Origin: Candidatus Aenigmatarchaeota archaeon
GTDB lineage: Archaea > Aenigmatarchaeota > Aenigmatarchaeia > QMZP01 > QMZT01
Length of the DNA: 62,550 nucleotides
Reading direction: 5' to 3'
Assembly (NCBI GenBank): GCA_041489155.1
Contig: JBGPQP010000007.1
Location: 1-62,550, forward strand
Shown here one piece after another: positions 13,494-29,096 of this stretch (positions are counted from its first letter, which is position 1; each line of letters begins with the position of its first letter). The notes beneath the pieces are model-generated. The model saw only the letters and a program-made list of their open reading frames with translations, ran no database searches and was not told the origin of the DNA. The translations under genes and the position numbers were made by a program.

Positions 13494-13633
13494 TAATTGG
13501 TTGCTATCACTTAAATACTTTGCGCGCGCTTCGCGCTTCCTTCCCGTTGCATCCAATATTAATATTATAACCCTGATTATAATATAACCAAACCAGCGAT
13601 TGACACAGGCGTAACCTGTGTCCTTCGAATAAC

Positions 13634-13741
13634 GGGGCCGTAGTGTAGTCTGGTCTAGTCAACCTCGAGCTTTTGAGCTTGACGCCATGATCATTCCAGC
13701 TTGGGGTGCTGGTGACCTGGGTTCAAATCCCAGCGGCCCCA
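13634..13741 (+). tRNA. tRNA-Pro(GGG) with 33-nt D-loop intron (13657-13689, site 20b/21)
   Basis: Acceptor GGGGCCG/CGGCCCC, anticodon arm CCAGC-TTGGGGT-GCTGG, T arm CTGGG-TTCAAAT-CCCAG; BHB TGGT/GCCA with CTA and TGA bulges. Confidence 0.92.
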
Positions 13742-20888: not shown

Positions 20889-21000
20889 GCGCCAATAGTC
20901 TAGCCTGGTAGGACACGGGCTTCCCAAGCCTGTGGCCCGGGTTCAAAGGACGCATGAAGCAGACTTCGTCTGCTTCCGTCTGAAGCTCCCGGTTGGCGCA
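20889..21000 (+). tRNA. tRNA-Gly(CCC) with 39-nt T-loop intron (20948-20986, site 59/60)
   Basis: Acceptor GCGCCAA/TTGGCGC, anticodon arm CGGGC-TTCCCAA-GCCTG; BHB TTCA/TGAA with AAG and GCT bulges restores TTCAAAT. Confidence 0.92.
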
Positions 21001-21104
21001 TTATTTTGTTCTAAAAACTCCGGAAGATGTTCTTGCATCCAATTACTCAGAACTGGGTTTTAGCGGAATTTTTAAAGCTAATTCCGAAGACTTTAAAGAT
21101 ACGC

Positions 21105-21548
21105 ATGTCTCGGGTTGTAAGGCTTTTCGGCAAAGGGGCTGAGAAATACATCCAAGAAGAGAAACCCGCAGCCTGCCCGTATCCTTTAGACAAACTTGGA
21201 GAATACGTGGGGAAGCAGATAAAAATCAAGTATCTCAACTGTGACATTTTCAAGGAAGAAACAGAGACGCTGAAATTTTTCCCGGGCAGGGATTTTTTCT
21301 ACATAGGGGATGAGATTGGTTATCACATGGTGAACTGGGACCGAGTAGACAGCAATGGGAGAACCTACAAGGTGCTGTCCATCAAAGTTCAGAAGGAAGA
21401 TGGCACGTGGGAAAAGATTTACAAGGCAATCGATGTGGAGCCGCAACTTATGATAAAAGCCAAGGAAGTGACTGCAGAAGCGGAACGAAATAAGAAAGGA
21501 AAGACTGGTGGTCTTGCATCAGGCGCTCCTTCTCTGGTCATGCCGTGA
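21105..21548 (+). CDS. Hypothetical protein
   Basis: Open frame MSRVVRLFGKG... with protein-like composition. Confidence 0.6.
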   Translation: MSRVVRLFGKGAEKYIQEEKPAACPYPLDKLGEYVGKQIKIKYLNCDIFKEETETLKFFPGRDFFYIGDEIGYHMVNWDRVDSNGRTYKVLSIKVQKEDGTWEKIYKAIDVEPQLMIKAKEVTAEAERNKKGKTGGLASGAPSLVMP

Positions 21549-21652
21549 AACCCCGATGCAAAAAACCTATATATTGAACAGACATTATTAATATAATATT
21601 AGCGCTCCATGAAATTCTGTTGGGGGATGGGGAGTCTTGGGGTAGGTTTTCT

Positions 21653-23512
21653 ATGACGTTCAACCCGGACCTTCTTGAGAAAGAGGGCAAGAAGGTCGTC
21701 TTGCTGGGGAACGAGGCGATTGCGAGAGGCGCGATGGAAGCGGGCATGGGCCTGTGCGCGTGCTATCCTGGAACGCCGAGCTCCGAGGTAGGGATTGCGC
21801 TTTCTCCGCTTGCAAAACAGGTGGGCTTCTATTTTGAGTGGAGCACGAACGAGAAAGTTGCGGTCGAGGTCTGCACCGGAGCCGCGTTTTCCGGCGTGCG
21901 CTCGCTTTCCGCGATGAAGCATTTCGGCCTCAACGTAGCGAGCGACTCGCTGCTGCCGATTGCCTACACTGGCGTACCGGGGGCGATGGTGATAATGGTC
22001 GCGGACGACCCGCTCGGCCACAGCTCCGCCCAGACCGAGCAGGACACCAGATTTTACGCGAGAATGGGCAAGATACCCATGATCGAGCCGGCGAACGCGC
22101 AGGAAGCGAAGGACTACACGAAGCTCGCTTTCGAGATATCCGCGAAGTACCAGCTGCCCGTCTTGCTGCGGACGACGACTATGGTTTCCCACTCCATCGG
22201 AACTGTCAAGCTGGGCAGCATGCCTGCGACGCTGAAGACGAAAGGGAAATTCGTGAAGGACCTGGAAAGGTTCAACTGCATCCCGCCTAGGCTGCAGACG
22301 CTGCATCATGCCCTCAACAAGAAGCTCGACCAGATCGAGACCGCATACGAATACCTCAACAAAGCCGAGGGCGCGGGCAGCACAGGCATACTTACGAGCG
22401 GGGTCTCGTACCAATATGCGAAGGAGCTGGGACTCAAAGGCGTCAGGATAGGCAAGATAGGAATGACGTATCCGATATCAAGGAAATTCGTCGAGGGCTT
22501 CATCCGCGGCCTGAAGAAGCTGATTGTTCTTGAGGAACTCGAGCCAGTGGTGGAGAGCTTTGCAAGGATGGCGGCGAAGGACGTGAACCCATCGCTCGAG
22601 ATCCACGGCAAGGACATCCTTTCCCGCGTGGGCGAATACAACCCCGAAATGATTCTGCAGGCCATAGCGCCGATACTGAAGATCAAGAACCCGGATTTCA
22701 CCATGCATGAAATGCATCTCAAGAAGATACAGCTGCCAGTGAGGAAGGCCGTGCTATGCCCGGGCTGTCCGCACAGGTCGACCTTCTACGCGGTGAAGAA
22801 GGTGATGGGCGAGCAGACCATATGGGGCGGCGACATCGGATGCTACGTCCTCGGGATACAGGAGCCTTTCAAGATGCAGGACTACATAATTTCCATGGGA
22901 TCGAGCATCGGGATCACGCACGGCATACAGATGGTGAGCGACCAGAAGGTCGCGCTGTTCATCGGCGACTCGACGTTCTTCCATGCAGGCCTATCAGGCC
23001 TCGTGAACACGAAGGCTCACGGCACGAAGCCTCTGGTAGTGATACTGGACAACGGCATCACGGCTATGACCGGCCACCAGCCGAACCCCGGAAGCGACTT
23101 CACCGGCATGGGTGACAAGAGGGAGCCGATGAAAATCGAAGATATCGTCAGGTCCTTCGGCATCAGCAACATGCGCGTCGTAAATGCTTTCAGTCAGAAA
23201 GAGCTGCAGGAGGCGGTAAAGGAACTGACATCTAAAGACGAAATCGGAGTCCTTATCTCCCGCGGGCTCTGCAGGCTTTACATGCGGCGTTTGCTGAGGC
23301 GGCAGGGCAGGGAATTCACGAAGTTCCAGATAGCTTCTGACAAGTGCAAGAAATGCCTCATGTGCGTCAAGCAGTTCGCGTGCCCTGCGATAATGCATGA
23401 GGGCGACAAGGTCTACATACGCGAAGACATATGCTGGGGCTGCGGCGTGTGCGCGCAGATATGCCCGGCTGGCGCGATAGTGCCGGCAAAAATGAAGGTG
23501 AAGAAAAAATGA
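21653..23512 (+). CDS. iorA: Indolepyruvate:ferredoxin oxidoreductase alpha subunit
   Basis: LGNEAIARG, YPGTPSSE, NEKVA, LCPGCPHR, GDSTFFH, C-terminal 2x[4Fe-4S] motifs. Confidence 0.93.
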   Translation: MTFNPDLLEKEGKKVVLLGNEAIARGAMEAGMGLCACYPGTPSSEVGIALSPLAKQVGFYFEWSTNEKVAVEVCTGAAFSGVRSLSAMKHFGLNVASDSLLPIAYTGVPGAMVIMVADDPLGHSSAQTEQDTRFYARMGKIPMIEPANAQEAKDYTKLAFEISAKYQLPVLLRTTTMVSHSIGTVKLGSMPATLKTKGKFVKDLERFNCIPPRLQTLHHALNKKLDQIETAYEYLNKAEGAGSTGILTSGVSYQYAKELGLKGVRIGKIGMTYPISRKFVEGFIRGLKKLIVLEELEPVVESFARMAAKDVNPSLEIHGKDILSRVGEYNPEMILQAIAPILKIKNPDFTMHEMHLKKIQLPVRKAVLCPGCPHRSTFYAVKKVMGEQTIWGGDIGCYVLGIQEPFKMQDYIISMGSSIGITHGIQMVSDQKVALFIGDSTFFHAGLSGLVNTKAHGTKPLVVILDNGITAMTGHQPNPGSDFTGMGDKREPMKIEDIVRSFGISNMRVVNAFSQKELQEAVKELTSKDEIGVLISRGLCRLYMRRLLRRQGREFTKFQIASDKCKKCLMCVKQFACPAIMHEGDKVYIREDICWGCGVCAQICPAGAIVPAKMKVKKK

Positions 23513-24096
23513 TGTGCAACATGCTTATTACCGGAGTGGGGGGAGAAGGCGTCCTAGTCACGTCGGTCATTGTTTCCAAGGCTGCGAACATCGAAGGCTA
23601 CGAAGTTCGCGGAACGCAATTGCACGGCCTTGCACAGAGGGGCGGGGCGATACCGGCGCACGTCAGGTTCGGGACGCGCGTATATTCGCAGCTCATCCCG
23701 AGGGGGCAGGCGGATCTGCTGCTGGCGCTCGAGCCGCTTGAGGCAGCGAGGTTCTGCTACTTCGCGAGCAAGGAGAGGACGAACATCATCGTTGACAACT
23801 ACCCGCTCAAGCCGGTGTATGCGAGCCTGTTCGACCAGCCATATCCGCCGGCGCAGAAGCTCACGGAAATGATTTCTCCTTTCGCCAAGAGCCTGTACTT
23901 CATAAACTCCTCTACCATATGCGAGGAGAAGCTGGGCGACCCGGTCTACGGGAACGTCATGCTACTCGGCTTCGCCATCGCGAAGGGTATGCTGCCGCTG
24001 AAGAAGGAATCGCTGGTGCAGGCCATAAAGGCGACCGTCAAAGAGCCGGAGAAGGACCTCCAGGCCCTGAGGATGGGCATGGAATACAGAGGCTGA
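23509..24096 (+). CDS. iorB: Indolepyruvate:ferredoxin oxidoreductase beta subunit
   Basis: TGVGGEG, HGLAQRGG, ALEPLEAAR; overlaps iorA stop. Confidence 0.92.
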   Translation: MMCNMLITGVGGEGVLVTSVIVSKAANIEGYEVRGTQLHGLAQRGGAIPAHVRFGTRVYSQLIPRGQADLLLALEPLEAARFCYFASKERTNIIVDNYPLKPVYASLFDQPYPPAQKLTEMISPFAKSLYFINSSTICEEKLGDPVYGNVMLLGFAIAKGMLPLKKESLVQAIKATVKEPEKDLQALRMGMEYRG

Positions 24097-24124
24097 ACCG
24101 ATTCTGTTTCTGAAAAAAAAGAAC

Positions 24125-26449
24125 CTATTCTCTAAGGTAGCCCCAATTGTGCAGGCGGTCGCTGTCCTCGAACCAGCGGTCGCCAACGTCCTTCCTGTAG
24201 AACATGTTGGGTATCAGGATGTTGTTTATCCTGTTGTACATCTGCGTCTGTGCCTGCTTCATCGTCGGACCGGTTCCGACGACGATAAGGACGACTCCGG
24301 CGTGGCCTGTGATGAGCCACTCGCCATTTACCAGCCTCACATCCTCTATGTGTATGCCTTCCATGTGCGGCTTCTTGAAGACGATGACGGCGTCCTTGGA
24401 ATTCGTGTTGAAGGTTTCCTCGTCGGTGAAAGGGAACGGAGGGACCACGACGCGGACACCGACCTGGAAACCGCTCTTCACCTTCAGTTTGTGGCCATTT
24501 CCCTTTGCGAGTTCGTAAAGGAACTCGCCTATCGGTGTTATCATGCCTTCCTGCTGGATGCTGATGGTCGGGTAGCCGAATCTCGAGGTGAACTCCAGCG
24601 GGTAGATGCCATAGCTGTTCACTATGCAGTTTATGTCTATGTAGCCGATGTAGCCTTCCTCGCGCAGCTTGGGTTCCATCTTCTTTAGCGTGGCGTTGAA
24701 TATCTTGTTGGGCATGGACCAGAACATCGAGGTGTTGCCGCACCAGAAGGGCTTGCCGTTCCTTCTGACATACATTATATGGTTCTTCACGGTGGCGCAG
24801 TACACCTTTCCGGAATAATTTATCATTTTAATATCCCTCTTGTCAAGCCACGAGTCGAGCTTCTTCACTCTTTCGAGGACTTCGTACTGAACGCCTGAGC
24901 AGTCAGCGAAATGGTCCTTTATCCATCGCTTCCCTTCGCGCTGCCTTTTCTTTATGATGCCGACTTTCCCGGTCTTCAGCAGGAGTTCCTGGATGCCGTC
25001 CGCCATTAGCTTCGAACAGGTGTAGAATATCCTGAAGCCTTTCATCTGAGTGGCGTCGCCGAGCGCAAACCATTTCAGGAAGATGTCTATCTGCCTCGGG
25101 CTCAGCTCCCTGATGAATGAAGGGACGTGCTTGTCATGCGCCTTGCCGAAAAGCCCGAGATAAGTCGAAAGCTGCTTGCCATAGGCGTAGAATTCGCCGT
25201 CTCCCCTGGTGAAAGTGAAGGGAAGCGTTTTGAGCATGGATGATATCATCTCGGTCTTCTCCGGGGTCTTCTGGGCGATGCTTACCTTGCCGTATGACGC
25301 AGAACCCTCAGCCAGCCATACGCCCATGAAAGCTAGCCAGTCGTCCATGGGAATTTCCAGTTCTCCCGTTTCCTGGAACAGAACCTGCCTTCCGGAGTAG
25401 TGGCCAACCGGGACGGAAGGAAGGGTGAAATATTGCTGCTCCTGCCCGGTCCATGTGCCGGTCCTCTTGATGACTGACTGACATTGCAGGTCGCGGGCCT
25501 TGACGAACCCGAATTTGTTCGCCCTGTTCCTCGCATCCCATTGCTTCGCGACGTACATGTTATGGTCCGGAGTGACCATGATGTCCAGCGTCTGGTTCTG
25601 TACCGAAACGAGCTCCCTGTGGTGATCGAAGGAAACCAAAACTTCCGGCCTGTGGAATTCGATTGCGTGGCTTGAGGGACTAAGGGTGCATATCTGGTCG
25701 TTATGATCCAGATCCCTGAAAAGCTTCCACCCGTTCTGCGTCAGGACTTCCGTCTGGTCGTCATAGCAACCCATCTCGCCGGTCGAGGGGCCGATGTTGC
25801 CCGGGAAGAGCTTCTTGTGCTCGAAGTTGACGTTTATCGGGTAGATGAACTCCTTGCCGTTGAAGAAAGCGCCGACCGCCACTTCGACTCCGCTGATTTT
25901 CTTCTGCAGCTGAAAGACCTTTATCCTTTCAGACCATGCCTTCTTGTAGTGCTCCAGGACCTGAATGACATCCTTGCCGTCGTCTTCTTCACCGACGAAA
26001 AGCAGCTGCTTTATGTTCTGGGCCTCGCCGCTCGGCTTGATGACGTATTTGCCGGGATGCTCCTGGACGAAGTTTATGGCGTCGTCGAACGAGGTGAAGT
26101 TCCAGCTGGGTATGGTCGTCACTCCCGCCTTTTTTAGTTCGTCCTGGCCGAAGCCCCTGTCATCCTCGAGCATGTCCGTGTAAGGCGTTCCGCCAACAAC
26201 CAGCTTGCCTTCCTGCCTGAGCTTCTGCGCAATCGTACCCTGACCGAGGACGTCATCGAATACGATGACATCCGCCCAGTCCGCATCCTTCCTCCAGTCG
26301 TCCGTCTTGGAAACGAAGCCGTCGCCTATGCTCCTTTCTGTCGGGCATTCAATAAAATATTTGGCCTCGTGGCCTTCCTTAATCACCTGCCACGCAATAT
26401 CGCTAATCAGCGCATCTAAGGAGACAAAAAGAAACTTTTTCTTTTCCAT
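24125..26449 (-). CDS. purD: Phosphoribosylamine-glycine ligase-like ATP-grasp enzyme interrupted by an intein
   Basis: LEDDRGFG, YVIKP, FEHKKLFPGNIGPSTGEMG|TS, LEFTSRFGYP. Confidence 0.82.
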   Translation of the reverse strand: MEKKKFLFVSLDALISDIAWQVIKEGHEAKYFIECPTERSIGDGFVSKTDDWRKDADWADVIVFDDVLGQGTIAQKLRQEGKLVVGGTPYTDMLEDDRGFGQDELKKAGVTTIPSWNFTSFDDAINFVQEHPGKYVIKPSGEAQNIKQLLFVGEEDDGKDVIQVLEHYKKAWSERIKVFQLQKKISGVEVAVGAFFNGKEFIYPINVNFEHKKLFPGNIGPSTGEMGCYDDQTEVLTQNGWKLFRDLDHNDQICTLSPSSHAIEFHRPEVLVSFDHHRELVSVQNQTLDIMVTPDHNMYVAKQWDARNRANKFGFVKARDLQCQSVIKRTGTWTGQEQQYFTLPSVPVGHYSGRQVLFQETGELEIPMDDWLAFMGVWLAEGSASYGKVSIAQKTPEKTEMISSMLKTLPFTFTRGDGEFYAYGKQLSTYLGLFGKAHDKHVPSFIRELSPRQIDIFLKWFALGDATQMKGFRIFYTCSKLMADGIQELLLKTGKVGIIKKRQREGKRWIKDHFADCSGVQYEVLERVKKLDSWLDKRDIKMINYSGKVYCATVKNHIMYVRRNGKPFWCGNTSMFWSMPNKIFNATLKKMEPKLREEGYIGYIDINCIVNSYGIYPLEFTSRFGYPTISIQQEGMITPIGEFLYELAKGNGHKLKVKSGFQVGVRVVVPPFPFTDEETFNTNSKDAVIVFKKPHMEGIHIEDVRLVNGEWLITGHAGVVLIVVGTGPTMKQAQTQMYNRINNILIPNMFYRKDVGDRWFEDSDRLHNWGYLRE
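24734..25768 (-). mobile_element. 345-aa intein with LAGLIDADG endonuclease domain in the PurD-like gene
   Basis: N-terminus CYDDQTEVLTQNGWK, block B VTPDHNM, EN motifs GVWLAEGS and WFALGDA, C-terminus YCATVKNH...WCGN followed by Thr+1. Confidence 0.92.
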
Positions 26450-26677
26450 GTTCTATCAGGCTGTACGCCAATTTTGACAAATTCTGACAAATTTGCTTAC
26501 ATTAATATTTATGTTCAAGCACATTTAAAAAACATGATGTTTTACATTCGTAAAATACTGCCGTCTGCCGGGGACGGCCGGGCAAAATCGTTGCCTGACG
26601 AACATGCCATGATATCTTTTATAAACTCCTGAGTAATATTTGAATATAATTTTCATCTGTTTTGTGGGGGTGTCTTG

Positions 26678-27865
26678 ATGAAAGGCCAGAAAAACCGGCT
26701 GCAATTCCTCAAGGACGAGCTTGAAGGCTTGAAGAAGGAGAATCTTTTCACCACCCTGCCCGTGCTAAGCACGCCGCAGGGAGCAAGGGTTGTAATAAAC
26801 GGCAAGAAAGTGCTCACGCTTTCTACGAATAATTATCTCGGTTTCGCCAACCATCCGAGGCTCGCCGCCGCTGCGAAGAAGGCGATGGACAGGTGGGGCT
26901 TCGGCTGCGGCGCCGTAAGGCAGATCGCAGGTACGATGGAAATACACAACGAGGCGGAGGAGATGCTTGCCAGGTACAAGCACACTGAGGCGTCGCTCAT
27001 TTTCGTAGCAGGCATCGCCGCCAACCGCGGCACGATACAGGTGCTCATGGGCGAGGGCGATGTCATCATAAGCGACGAACTCAACCACGGCAGCATCATC
27101 GACGGAGTTCGCCTTACGAAGTCGGAGAAGAAGATCTACCCGCATCTGGACATGGCCGGGCTGGAGAAGGCGCTGAAGGAGTCGCAATCCGCGAGAAGGC
27201 GCCTGGTCGTAACGGACGGCGTGTTCAGCATGGACGGCGACATCGCTCCGCTTGACCAGATAGCCGAACTCGCGGAAAAATATGACGCGATAACAATGGT
27301 CGACGACGCGCACGGGGATGGCGTCCTCGGAAAAGACGGGAGGGGCATAGTTGACCACTTTAATCTTCACGGACGGATCGATATTGACATGGGCACGCTT
27401 TCGAAGGCGTTCGGTTGCCTGGGAGGATATATCGCGGGCCGCCAGGAGCTGCGCGATTATCTGATCAACCGCGCCCGCTCTTTCATCTTCACAACCGCGC
27501 ACCCGCCCTGCGTGACCGCAGCGATAATGGAGGCGCTGAGAATCGTTCAGGACGAGCCGCAGCATCTCAAGCAGCTGTGGGACAACACGAAATTCTTCAA
27601 GGAAGGGTTGCGCGACTTGGGTTTCAATATCGGCCACAGCCAGACGCCGATCACGCCCGTGATAGTCGGCGAGAGCGCGAAGGCTCAGCAGCTGAGCAAG
27701 GCGCTGTTCGAGCACGGCGTATTCGTCAAGCCGATATTATACCCACTCGTATCGAAGGATTCCGCGCGCGTGAGGAACATCGTGACAGCGGAGCACACAA
27801 AAGACGATTTGGACTTCGCGCTCAAGACATACGAGAAGGTAGGGAAGGACCTGAAACTTATATAA
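26678..27865 (+). CDS. kbl: Glycine C-acetyltransferase (2-amino-3-ketobutyrate CoA ligase)
   Basis: NNYLGFANHP, SDELNHGSIIDG, DGVFSMDGD, VDDAHG, GTLSKA; neighbour of tdh. Confidence 0.88.
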   Translation: MKGQKNRLQFLKDELEGLKKENLFTTLPVLSTPQGARVVINGKKVLTLSTNNYLGFANHPRLAAAAKKAMDRWGFGCGAVRQIAGTMEIHNEAEEMLARYKHTEASLIFVAGIAANRGTIQVLMGEGDVIISDELNHGSIIDGVRLTKSEKKIYPHLDMAGLEKALKESQSARRRLVVTDGVFSMDGDIAPLDQIAELAEKYDAITMVDDAHGDGVLGKDGRGIVDHFNLHGRIDIDMGTLSKAFGCLGGYIAGRQELRDYLINRARSFIFTTAHPPCVTAAIMEALRIVQDEPQHLKQLWDNTKFFKEGLRDLGFNIGHSQTPITPVIVGESAKAQQLSKALFEHGVFVKPILYPLVSKDSARVRNIVTAEHTKDDLDFALKTYEKVGKDLKLI

Positions 27866-27935
27866 CTTCAACTTTCCTTATTTTATAGTCAAGCGACAGC
27901 TTGAACTATACAACGAGACTGTCTTTCGCTGGTAT

Positions 27936-28092
27936 GGGCCGGTAGTCTAGCGGTTAAACCCTTTTGCTGACGCAAAAGCGTTTACGGAAAAGTTCCGTAT
28001 ATGACGTCGCGCTTACAACGCGAAGGCCGCAGGTTCGATGGGCGCATGAAGCAGGTTTCACCTGCTTCCGTTCGAGATTCCTGCCCGGCCCA
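27936..28092 (+). tRNA. tRNA-Val(TAC) with two introns (D-loop 27956-28000, 45 nt; T-loop 59/60 28040-28078, 39 nt)
   Basis: Acceptor GGGCCGG/CCGGCCC, anticodon arm TCGCG-CTTACAA-CGCGA, T stem GCAGG/CCTGC; BHB helices GCGG/CCGT and TTCG/CGAG. Confidence 0.9.
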
Positions 28093-28133
28093 TTATTGCA
28101 CTTATTGCGAAGAAAAGAACGAGTGGTGAAGGG

Positions 28134-29096
28134 ATGACAAGGATTCTTGTAACAGGCGCGACGGGCCAGATAGGCACGAGCCTTGTGCCGGCCCTGAGGG
28201 AAAAATACGGCAACTCGAATGTTGTGGCTGCAGGCCACAGAAATATGCCGGAAGAAGCTTTCATAAAGGCCGGGCCTTTCGAGGTCCTTGAAGGCACCAA
28301 CAGGGAAACGCTCATCGACGTGATAGAGAAATATCGTATAGACACGGTTTATCACTTGGTATCACTGCTTTCTGCGACGGGAGAAAAGAATCCGGACCTG
28401 ACCTGGCAGGTCAACATGATCTCGCTGAAAAACGTGCTCGACCTAGCAAAAGAATACGAGATGTCGAGGGTTTTCTGGCCGAGCTCCATTGCAGCCTTCG
28501 GCCCGACGACTCCAAGGGACAGAACGCCCCAGGCGACCATACTGGAACCGAACACAATGTACGGGGTGACGAAAGTCGCGGGTGAACTGCTGTGCAACTA
28601 CTATTTCAAGAAGTACGCTGTCGATGTCAGGAGCCTGCGCTATCCAGGCATCATAAGCTACAAGGCCTTGCCCGGCGGCGGGACGACCGATTATGCGGTC
28701 GAAATATTCTACGAGGCGCTGAAAAACAAAAGATACAAATGCTACCTGCGCGAGGATTCGACGCTGCCCATGATGTACATGGACGACGCCATCAAAGCGA
28801 CGGTAAACATGATGGAAGCGCCGCCGGAGAAGATAAAGGTCCGCACGAGCTACAACCTGGCAGCGATAAGCTTCTCTCCCAAGGAAATCGCAGCCGAGAT
28901 AAAGAAGCACATCCCCTCGTTCGAATGCGCATACGAGCCGGACTTCCGCCAAGCCATCGCTGATTCCTGGCCCAAGGTAATAGACGACTCACAGGCAAGG
29001 AAAGATTGGGGCTGGAAGCACGAGTACGACCTGAAGCGCATGACAAAAGACATGCTTGAAAAACTGGGCGCGAAACTGGGCATACAGTACAAGTAG
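28134..29096 (+). CDS. tdh: L-threonine 3-dehydrogenase (SDR/epimerase type)
   Basis: TGATGQIG, LLSATGE, PSSIAAFG, YGVTK, GGGTTDY. Confidence 0.88.
   Translation: MTRILVTGATGQIGTSLVPALREKYGNSNVVAAGHRNMPEEAFIKAGPFEVLEGTNRETLIDVIEKYRIDTVYHLVSLLSATGEKNPDLTWQVNMISLKNVLDLAKEYEMSRVFWPSSIAAFGPTTPRDRTPQATILEPNTMYGVTKVAGELLCNYYFKKYAVDVRSLRYPGIISYKALPGGGTTDYAVEIFYEALKNKRYKCYLREDSTLPMMYMDDAIKATVNMMEAPPEKIKVRTSYNLAAISFSPKEIAAEIKKHIPSFECAYEPDFRQAIADSWPKVIDDSQARKDWGWKHEYDLKRMTKDMLEKLGAKLGIQYK

Follow-up and report, generated by a model that had tools for sequence, protein, structure and literature searches.

Two tRNA genes interrupted in the T-loop

The window analysed here is a 62,550-nucleotide stretch of contig JBGPQP010000007.1, from the genome of a Candidatus Aenigmatarchaeota archaeon (assembly GCA_041489155.1; 1.13 Mb in 39 contigs, 89.65% complete, GC 49%). 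It contains a tRNA-Gly(CCC) gene and a tRNA-Val(UAC) gene that are each interrupted in the T-loop, at position 59/60, by a 39-nt bulge-helix-bulge (BHB) intron carrying a hairpin. In its default mode ARAGORN reports no tRNA in the window, and the Rfam tRNA model rises above its gathering score at a single window site (the intron-containing tRNA of Table 1); standard tRNA finders miss these genes because BHB introns interrupt them. We listed possible BHBs, in either orientation, near every weak tRNA signal in the genome, excised them in silico and passed the products to ARAGORN, a procedure whose noisy output included many spurious multi-intron solutions that were discarded by eye. After intron removal ARAGORN called a 75-nt tRNA-Gly(CCC) with one 39-nt intron and a 75-nt tRNA-Val(TAC) with a 45-nt intron in the D region in addition to the 39-nt one, a canonical cloverleaf being restored in both cases.

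The letters quoted for both introns in the preliminary description of this DNA match the window sequence, and the two introns indeed have the same length and the same site. Their BHB is strict and mirror-oriented relative to the canonical anticodon-loop intron, with a fully paired 4-bp central helix between two 3-nt bulges on opposite strands (hBHBh'), an outer helix of 5 bp provided by the T stem and an inner helix of 4 bp. With a slash marking the predicted cut, the Gly intron has a 5' bulge AA/G, a helix GACG:CGTC, a second bulge CAT, the hairpin, a TGAA that pairs with the exon TTCA, and a 3' bulge GC/T; the Val intron has AT/G, GGCG:CGTT, CAT, the hairpin, a CGAG pairing with the exon TTCG, and AT/T. 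Behind the 4-bp helix and the 3-nt bulge, both introns form a 9-bp hairpin closed by a 3-nt loop. Archaeal EndA cuts after the second base of a bulge, which is where each predicted cut falls. This anatomy was derived from BHB enumeration, folds and reading by eye.

The AC/GT to GT/AC exchange between the Gly and the Val stems amounts to two compensatory base pairs, as had been proposed. The 21-nt motif GAAGCAGNNTTCNNCTGCTTC has two exact matches in the window, coinciding with the two hairpins, where 0.03 would be expected by chance and where none of 100 shuffles reached two matches. In public contigs at least 118 stretches match the motif exactly; these are mostly bacterial and near the chance level (about 70 expected, by rough arithmetic). 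No Rfam family other than tRNA reaches its gathering score in the window, and the hairpin module matches none.

Table 1. Features of the window that bear on the two introns, with the evidence for each.
Feature	Position	Strand	Evidence
tRNA-Gly(CCC) gene including intron	20889-21000	+	ARAGORN on spliced sequence
Gly 39-nt intron, T-loop 59/60	20948-20986	+	strict BHB; model R1, 85 bits
Gly intron hairpin, 9 bp, GAAGCAGAC-TTC-GTCTGCTTC	20956-20976	+	motif scan, fold, alignment
tRNA-Val(UAC) gene, two introns	27936-28092	+	ARAGORN after in silico splicing
Val 39-nt intron, T-loop 59/60	28040-28078	+	strict BHB; model R1, 79 bits
Val intron hairpin, 9 bp, GAAGCAGGT-TTC-ACCTGCTTC	28048-28068	+	motif scan, fold, alignment
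Val D-region intron, 45 nt, outside the hairpin family	~27955-27999 (boundary ambiguous by 2 nt)	+	BHB candidates
Intron-containing tRNA	13634-13741	+	Rfam tRNA model, 50.7 bits
Third hairpin copy of the window, GACACAGGC-GTA-ACCTGTGTC	13602-13622	+	hairpin census, sequence, fold; 11 nt upstream of the tRNA at 13634
Predicted EndA, three-unit ε-type tRNA splicing endonuclease, 396 aa	38508-39698	+	Pfam tRNA_int_endo (2 stretches) and tRNA_int_endo_N

Covariation and the conserved core of the family

The preliminary description had proposed a covariance-model search for the hairpin family, and we built such a model (R1) from six gap-free members with the structure supplied explicitly. In the taxonomic family to which the genome belongs (f1), R1 finds the family at E<=0.01 in 21 of the 23 genomes, no genome having more than 16 matches; in 14 of the 23 a match is full-length and reaches E<=1e-6. 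Copy number ranges from 0 to 16 per f1 genome. In an even sample of 151 genomes of the class, searched at E<=1e-6, matches were found in 8 of 11 other f1 genomes and, as single marginal hits, in 3 of 9 genomes of family f7, and in none of the 130 genomes from the remaining families of the sample.

Covariation was assessed on an alignment (A3) of 72 matches at E<=1e-6, which came from 76 loci and represent 69 distinct sequences in five genera; 40 further hits were fetched and some weaker ones left out, and two rows (L172 and L012) are atypical and not clean T-loop introns. A first MAFFT alignment misplaced the shorter members, and model-based alignments were used instead. Across the 69 distinct rows, 98.2% of the cells in paired columns are standard pairs, as compared to 81.7% in shuffles, and none of 500 shuffles reached the observed value. 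Both sides have changed in 19 of the 22 pairs, with 238 doubly changed cells against 66 in shuffles, and when the 3' partner is slid by 1-3 columns pairing falls to 34-52%. The hairpin alone is 99.5% paired, with double changes in 7 of its 9 pairs, and the central helix, which joins exon to intron, is paired in 96.0% of its cells. The pairing of the intron 4-mer with the T-loop, which the preliminary description had pointed out for Gly and Val, is seen across the family: opposite T-loop position 57 the 69 sequences show A-U in 39 cases, G-C in 19 and G-U in 3, with 8 unpaired.

In the hairpin, G·U pairs outnumber A·C mismatches by 16 to 0, and in the inner helix (P2) by 52 to 4, an asymmetry to which R1's own preference for G·U may add slightly. 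Since G·U is tolerated far more often than A·C, the constraint acts on the sense strand, that is, on RNA.

Within this framework some features are nearly fixed while others drift. The first two hairpin pairs (G-C and A-U) are invariant in 72/72 members, and the rest of the stem varies freely by paired substitution (GAAGCAG, GACGCAG, GATTCCG, GACACGG, GAAGCCG and others). GAAGCAG..CTGCTTC, which had been taken as the hairpin of the family, is thus merely the commonest of many covarying stems. Similarly, the CAT bulge singled out earlier is present in both window introns and its length of 3 nt is kept in 71/72 members, while its sequence is not conserved family-wide (CAT, TAT, TTT, AAA, AAT etc.); G occurs once among 215 bulge letters and the last base is U in 61/72. 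Intron length is 36-40 nt in 68/72, and three members in one genome (G019) are shortened to 31-32 nt, with 5-bp stems and GAAA loops.

A comparison within the genus points the same way. Between the genome studied here and G004, the tRNA-Gly(CCC) introns are identical at 30/39 positions and the exons differ at about 4 positions, and the intergenic flanks are essentially unalignable; the three differences in the hairpin are all complete pair swaps, and the 3' 11 nt of the intron are identical. The preliminary description would have been contradicted by conservation no better than that of neutral recent duplicates; here conservation exceeds the neutral level, with saturated flanks. Together with the compensatory changes across the 69 distinct sequences, this supports its suggestion of selection on structure beyond the BHB, namely on the 4-bp helix, the 3-nt bulge and the hairpin.

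Two known RNA motifs were considered for this structure and set aside. Box C/D RNAs carry a C box (RUGAUGA) and a D box (CUGA) that together form a kink-turn. By eye, A3 contains no C box, and CUGA occurs only where the T-loop reads TTCA. For a kink-turn, Watson-Crick G-C and A-U pairs stand, again by eye, after the bulge where sheared G·A pairs are needed.

Distribution of the introns and of the hairpin module

R1 finds four full-length copies in the genome studied here: those of tRNA-Gly(CCC) and tRNA-Val(UAC), one of 39 nt in tRNA-Gly(GCC) on contig C6, and one of 37 nt in a tRNA-Leu on C4, whose paralog on C10 has an intact TTCGAAT loop. The introns of the two Gly genes are near-identical. 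Across the 72 members, all at 59/60, hosts could be assigned for 49 and comprise 13 amino acids and 24 anticodons, with assignments that needed further in silico introns being less sure. As had been proposed, therefore, the two window introns are homologous and belong to one intron family common to different isoacceptors, in which highly similar introns occupy a single position.

Stem variants cluster by lineage across different tRNAs. The GAAGCCG core, for example, occurs eight times and only in genus g7, where the exon-pairing 4-mer alone has changed and where introns are letter-identical in different tRNAs of G015 and G019; similarly, in G003 and G004 GACGCAGAT is common to tRNA-Asp, tRNA-Ala and a tRNA of unassigned identity. 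Orthologous tRNAs of different genera, in turn, carry different stems, with three stems for tRNA-Phe(GAA) in g6, g7 and g9. The tRNA-Asp(GTC) gene of the genome studied here is uninterrupted and reads TTCAAAT, whereas in G003 and G004 it carries a precise 38-nt insertion after TTCAAA, without target duplication and, in G003, with a recognisably homologous upstream flank. Presence is therefore patchy among close relatives, both at this site and in copy number.

The same hairpin also sits in introns of about 40 nt in the D-loop, found in this genome in tRNA-Thr(GGU) (C6), tRNA-Arg(CCU) (C1) and a tRNA on C16. These introns, at position 20/21, have a strict BHB, and their removal restores the D-loop sequence AGUGGUA. 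Their layout comprises the D stem, a central helix AGUG:CGCU with bulges GU/A and AG/A, a 3-bp inner helix, a 6-nt bulge (UCGANN) and the hairpin. A model of this version (R2) matches 18/23 f1 genomes at E<=1e-4, and in the 26 distinct rows of its alignment (the 27 rows include one antisense self-hit) 96.3% of the cells are paired as compared to 85.2% in shuffles, with both sides changed in 13 of 20 pairs. In three D-loop introns of 91-92 nt a second hairpin cassette is nested in the loop of the first (L261 and L272, both 1501-1591 and from G013, and L262, 1501-1592, from G008). We also considered whether the D-loop intron is a T-loop cassette in reverse; by eye its flanks fit better as the reverse complement (AGCG…hairpin…TCGAAAT), yet its loops are U-rich in the sense direction in most cases, and we do not claim this.

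In tRNA-Thr(GGU) of this genome (G000:C6:28726-28780, minus strand) the loop of the D-loop hairpin reads GAA, and on an identical or near-identical stem it reads TTT in L253 (tRNA-Thr(GGU) of G002) and TTC in L257 (tRNA-Thr(CGU) of G004); this looks like a small loop inversion between inverted arms. In G009, on the minus strand at about 1460-1560 of L016, a GAAGCAGGT…ACCTGCTTC hairpin lies within an intron in the anticodon region of another tRNA, which brings the tRNA positions that use the module to at least three.

Copies also occur outside introns. The third hairpin of the window lies in the leader of the tRNA at 13634 and has cassette-like flanks, AGCG-ATT … CTTCGAATAAC. Leader hairpins were examined as possible BHB processing sites of the tRNA 5' end, and no convincing BHB was found, including at this copy. 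In the leader of tRNA-Thr(UGU) on C20, one hairpin is common to all four aligned genomes of the genus, and the genome studied here (1/4) alone has a second cassette, about 40 nt long. On C3 the interval from a stop codon to the start of rpoK contains a 39-nt cassette and, in diverged form, a repeat of some 15 nt of the preceding sequence. Two of 10 genomes have an insertion at this spot, the present one and G017, from different genera; in the other 8 it is empty, with 2-5 nt between stop and start codon. A hairpin of the family that has cassette flanks runs over the predicted start of an ORF for a Bud32-like kinase (ATG-AAG-CAG…) in G021, at about 1490-1540 of L020, whose sequence is that of L063.

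A census of 9-bp hairpins in the genome counted 95 with GA…TC ends, at 78 loci; of the other 15 end-dinucleotide pairs, 12 give 21-56, and AT/AT, TT/AA and AA/TT give 61, 81 and 109. By eye, the genome contains more than 20 clear family copies, mostly associated with tRNAs.

DNA of related populations was also consulted. Contigs of other sediment samples carry the intron-bearing Gly allele (X4, 20899-21232; X5, 20909-21129) and Val allele (X3, 27910-28300) with 0-1 differences, and among the contig joints listed from metagenome DNA none skips either 39-nt intron. One low-support X2 contig (depth 3.3, 21 letters on the shorter side) joins 27954 to 28000, skipping exactly the predicted 45-nt Val D-region intron, which would mean an allele without this intron in a related population. 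Separately, window positions 27050-27303 reach 5-10 times the depth of their neighbours in all four metagenome runs, and many contig joints leave out 90-192 bases within about 27105-27302; the pattern suggests that a gene segment, conserved and common to other organisms, borders a stretch of variable length.

Splicing, spread and the origin of the introns

The EndA encoded in the window, 11 kb from the introns, matches PDB 4fz2 end to end (E = 6.2e-110). The text of PMC3488258 names 4FZ2 in its account of the three-unit ε2 EndA structure of ARMAN-2 and describes this enzyme as cutting a relaxed BHB intron from a T-loop. By sequence homology, the window-encoded EndA is the enzyme expected to excise these introns and, by analogy with its ARMAN-2 homolog, would have a broad specificity that includes sites outside the anticodon loop. 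RtcB is also encoded (C1:59358-60626, E = 3.8e-156), so that the genome appears to hold both a suitable endonuclease and a ligase.

Full-length EndA homologs are found in 34 of the 151 sampled genomes of the class, in addition to one partial match: in 12/12 f1 genomes, in 13/14 from sister families of the order (which also hold the partial match) and in 9 from two further families. According to a passage of PMC5829648, Micrarchaeum-type organisms were in 2018 the only ones known to have the ε2 type; judging by these homologs, EndA of this ε type is spread well beyond that group. As EndA is far more widespread than the intron family, it appears permissive for such introns yet does not explain their burst.

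The hairpin itself seems dispensable for splicing. tRNA-Met of the same genome (G000:C6:22841-22936, plus strand) carries at 59/60 a minimal 21-nt BHB intron, CCTT-AATGAA-AAGG, which lacks the bulge and hairpin module: it forms a BHB from the T stem, TTCA:TGAA and the bulges AA/A … AA/T, behind which stand only a 4-bp helix and a 6-nt loop. If the Met gene is functional, as we assume, the hairpin would be unnecessary for excision. The existence of this hairpin-less intron, together with the copies outside tRNAs, therefore indicates that the module belongs to the cassette and not to the substrate requirement of the enzyme.

We consider it likely that the Gly and Val introns are copies of a mobile BHB intron cassette that is cut by the ε2-type EndA of the window. 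Such a cassette would consist of an adaptor and a constant module. In the adaptor, pairing of the 3' 4-mer with the exon TTCR would create the 4-bp central helix of a strict BHB whose outer helix is the T stem; the constant module would comprise the 4-bp helix, a bulge of 3 nt free of G and a roughly 9-bp hairpin, invariably opening with G-A and closing with U-C. In the pre-tRNA, EndA would cut both 3-nt bulges and RtcB would presumably join the exons. At the DNA level the cassette would move between sites, to many T-loops, to D-loops (20/21), to leaders and occasionally to intergenic spots, becoming a spliceable intron wherever pairing between its flanks and the host RNA is possible, and remaining a passenger elsewhere. 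The structure beyond the BHB would be selected on the sense-strand RNA as part of the cassette, with no requirement from splicing; the non-intron hairpin copies and the hairpin-less 21-nt intron point to a property of the mobile cassette in this respect.

Several observations weigh against this interpretation. With the queries used, no reverse transcriptase was found in the roughly 90%-complete assembly, and neither was a Y1 hairpin transposase (PF01797), although at 89.65% completeness its absence is not proven. Splicing, circular introns and leader processing are all steps that we infer from sequence, and 23 of the 72 members have no assigned host (17 without a call, 6 ambiguous). Filled and empty sites can also be explained by precise loss, and a single mechanism may not cover both the tRNA insertions, which lack a duplication, and the intergenic copies with their diverged repeat of about 15 nt. 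The excess of G·U over A·C fits a host function or an RNA function as well as a mobile element. Finally, the alignments (A3 and A5) were fitted to model structures and the genomes are related, so the shuffle counts are to be read as strong support and not as probabilities. A hairpin element of the IS200/IS605 type (PATE/REP-like) was considered separately; it would need a Y1 transposase to mobilise its hairpin ends, and none was found in this assembly.

Among other explanations, the hairpin could be a mere folding aid that locks the BHB, with the introns spread solely by gene conversion between tRNA T-arms and without element-like mobility. The T-arms do offer flanking homology (GGTTCRA … CC), the tRNA insertions are precise and without target duplication, neither transposase nor reverse transcriptase was found, and a stable hairpin beside a 4-bp helix would favour the BHB fold. 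However, the module also occurs where there is no T-arm homology, in D-loops at 20/21, in leaders, at the intergenic site in two genera and nested within another copy, and introns of 21 nt and of 31-32 nt at 59/60 do without a long hairpin, so that we regard this account as rather unlikely. We think it still less probable, at one chance among several, that the bulge and the invariant base of the hairpin form a site for a host protein, or that the excised, probably circular 39-nt RNA has a function, as the preliminary description had hinted; conservation would then be a consequence of that function. The nearly fixed elements (the two invariant pairs, and the 3-nt bulge that almost never contains G and mostly ends in U), the selection on sense RNA, the dispensability of the hairpin for splicing and a conservation far above that of neutral flanks would all suit such a role. 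Against it, only a subset of the introns of this genome has the module, and its copy number and hosts differ widely among close relatives, which is unexpected for a fixed cellular function; moreover, it reaches the gathering score of no Rfam family and by eye resembles neither a C/D box RNA nor a kink-turn.

That the two introns are simply recent neutral duplicates, whose similarity and stem swap say nothing about selection, is very improbable. Within the window there are indeed only two copies with two covarying pairs, and the introns of the two Gly genes of the genome are near-identical; but the structure is kept by 69 distinct members with an excess of double changes over shuffles, and orthologs within the genus differ by three fully compensated pairs between saturated flanks. 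The mobile cassette, which we prefer, may be taken one step further: the unit of about 39 nt, made of adaptor, helix, bulge and GA…UC hairpin, could be a self-propagating though non-autonomous "mobile mini-intron" that is selected as RNA, with the invariant bulge and hairpin base serving as a handle for some insertion machinery. We put this forward tentatively, as a possibility that falls well short of an even chance; the machinery might consist of the splicing enzymes working backwards, or of a homing nuclease whose gene lies elsewhere in the genome. If it holds, landings in tRNA loops create new BHB introns in real time, which would provide a direct and testable mechanism of archaeal intron gain.

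Related cases are known in other archaea. In Thermoproteales, near-identical introns at the same positions, canonical or non-canonical, of different isodecoder tRNAs were described by Fujishima et al. 2010 and taken as intron transposition, as summarised in a review (PMC4090602). The review regards the junction BHB as probably setting which targets are possible, and gain as probably taking place at the DNA level, by a mechanism that it calls unknown. The introns described here resemble those transposed groups in placing similar sequences at one position in different isoacceptors. They differ in their host, which is a DPANN Aenigmatarchaeota and not a crenarchaeon of the order Thermoproteales, and in the endonuclease, which is of the ε2 and not the (αβ)2 type. 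As compared to those groups as the review presents them, the introns here are built on one constant bulge and hairpin module. The module recurs at another tRNA site as well as in tRNA leaders and intergenic DNA, and species of one genus differ in which sites are filled.

ARMAN-2 (Candidatus Micrarchaeum acidiphilum) likewise has a three-unit EndA and, according to passages of PMC3488258 and PMC3239211, a T-loop intron in pre-tRNA-Cys. That intron has a relaxed BHB whereas those studied here are strict, and those passages describe no proliferated hairpin family. Hairpin-forming BHB introns of less than 50 nt were reported in 16S rRNA genes of Thermoproteales (Jay and Inskeep 2015, PMC4496867), where the text holds that co-conversion with a homing-endonuclease intron next to it moved at least one of them passively. 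These introns share with ours that they are non-coding, shorter than 50 nt and consist of little beyond a hairpin and a BHB; in contrast, they lie in rRNA at seven fixed loci and are not reported in that text as one sequence family, while the present ones occupy dozens of tRNA sites, and at the sites read here no adjacent homing-endonuclease intron was seen. Full-text searches turned up no account of such a hairpin intron family for Aenigmatarchaeota, in a collection that leaves out most subscription journals (including Fujishima 2010). Relative to the known cases, what differs here is the lineage and the enzyme type, the constant module, its occurrence at two tRNA sites and outside genes, and the insertion polymorphism within a genus.

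The mechanism that brings tRNA introns of archaea to new sites is called unknown in the review text (PMC4090602), and a passage of a 2026 preprint on Asgard tRNAs reports that no general path by which introns arrive was found. The lineage studied here offers clean material in this respect, with one recognisable cassette, dozens of insertions per genome and filled and empty orthologous sites within a genus; it also provides the module both in and out of spliceable contexts, and, as a natural control, an intron at the same site that lacks the hairpin. With such material, intron gain becomes accessible to experiment. Related introns at one spot in two tRNA genes, members of a family that appears to be still spreading, show in concrete form how archaea gain introns.

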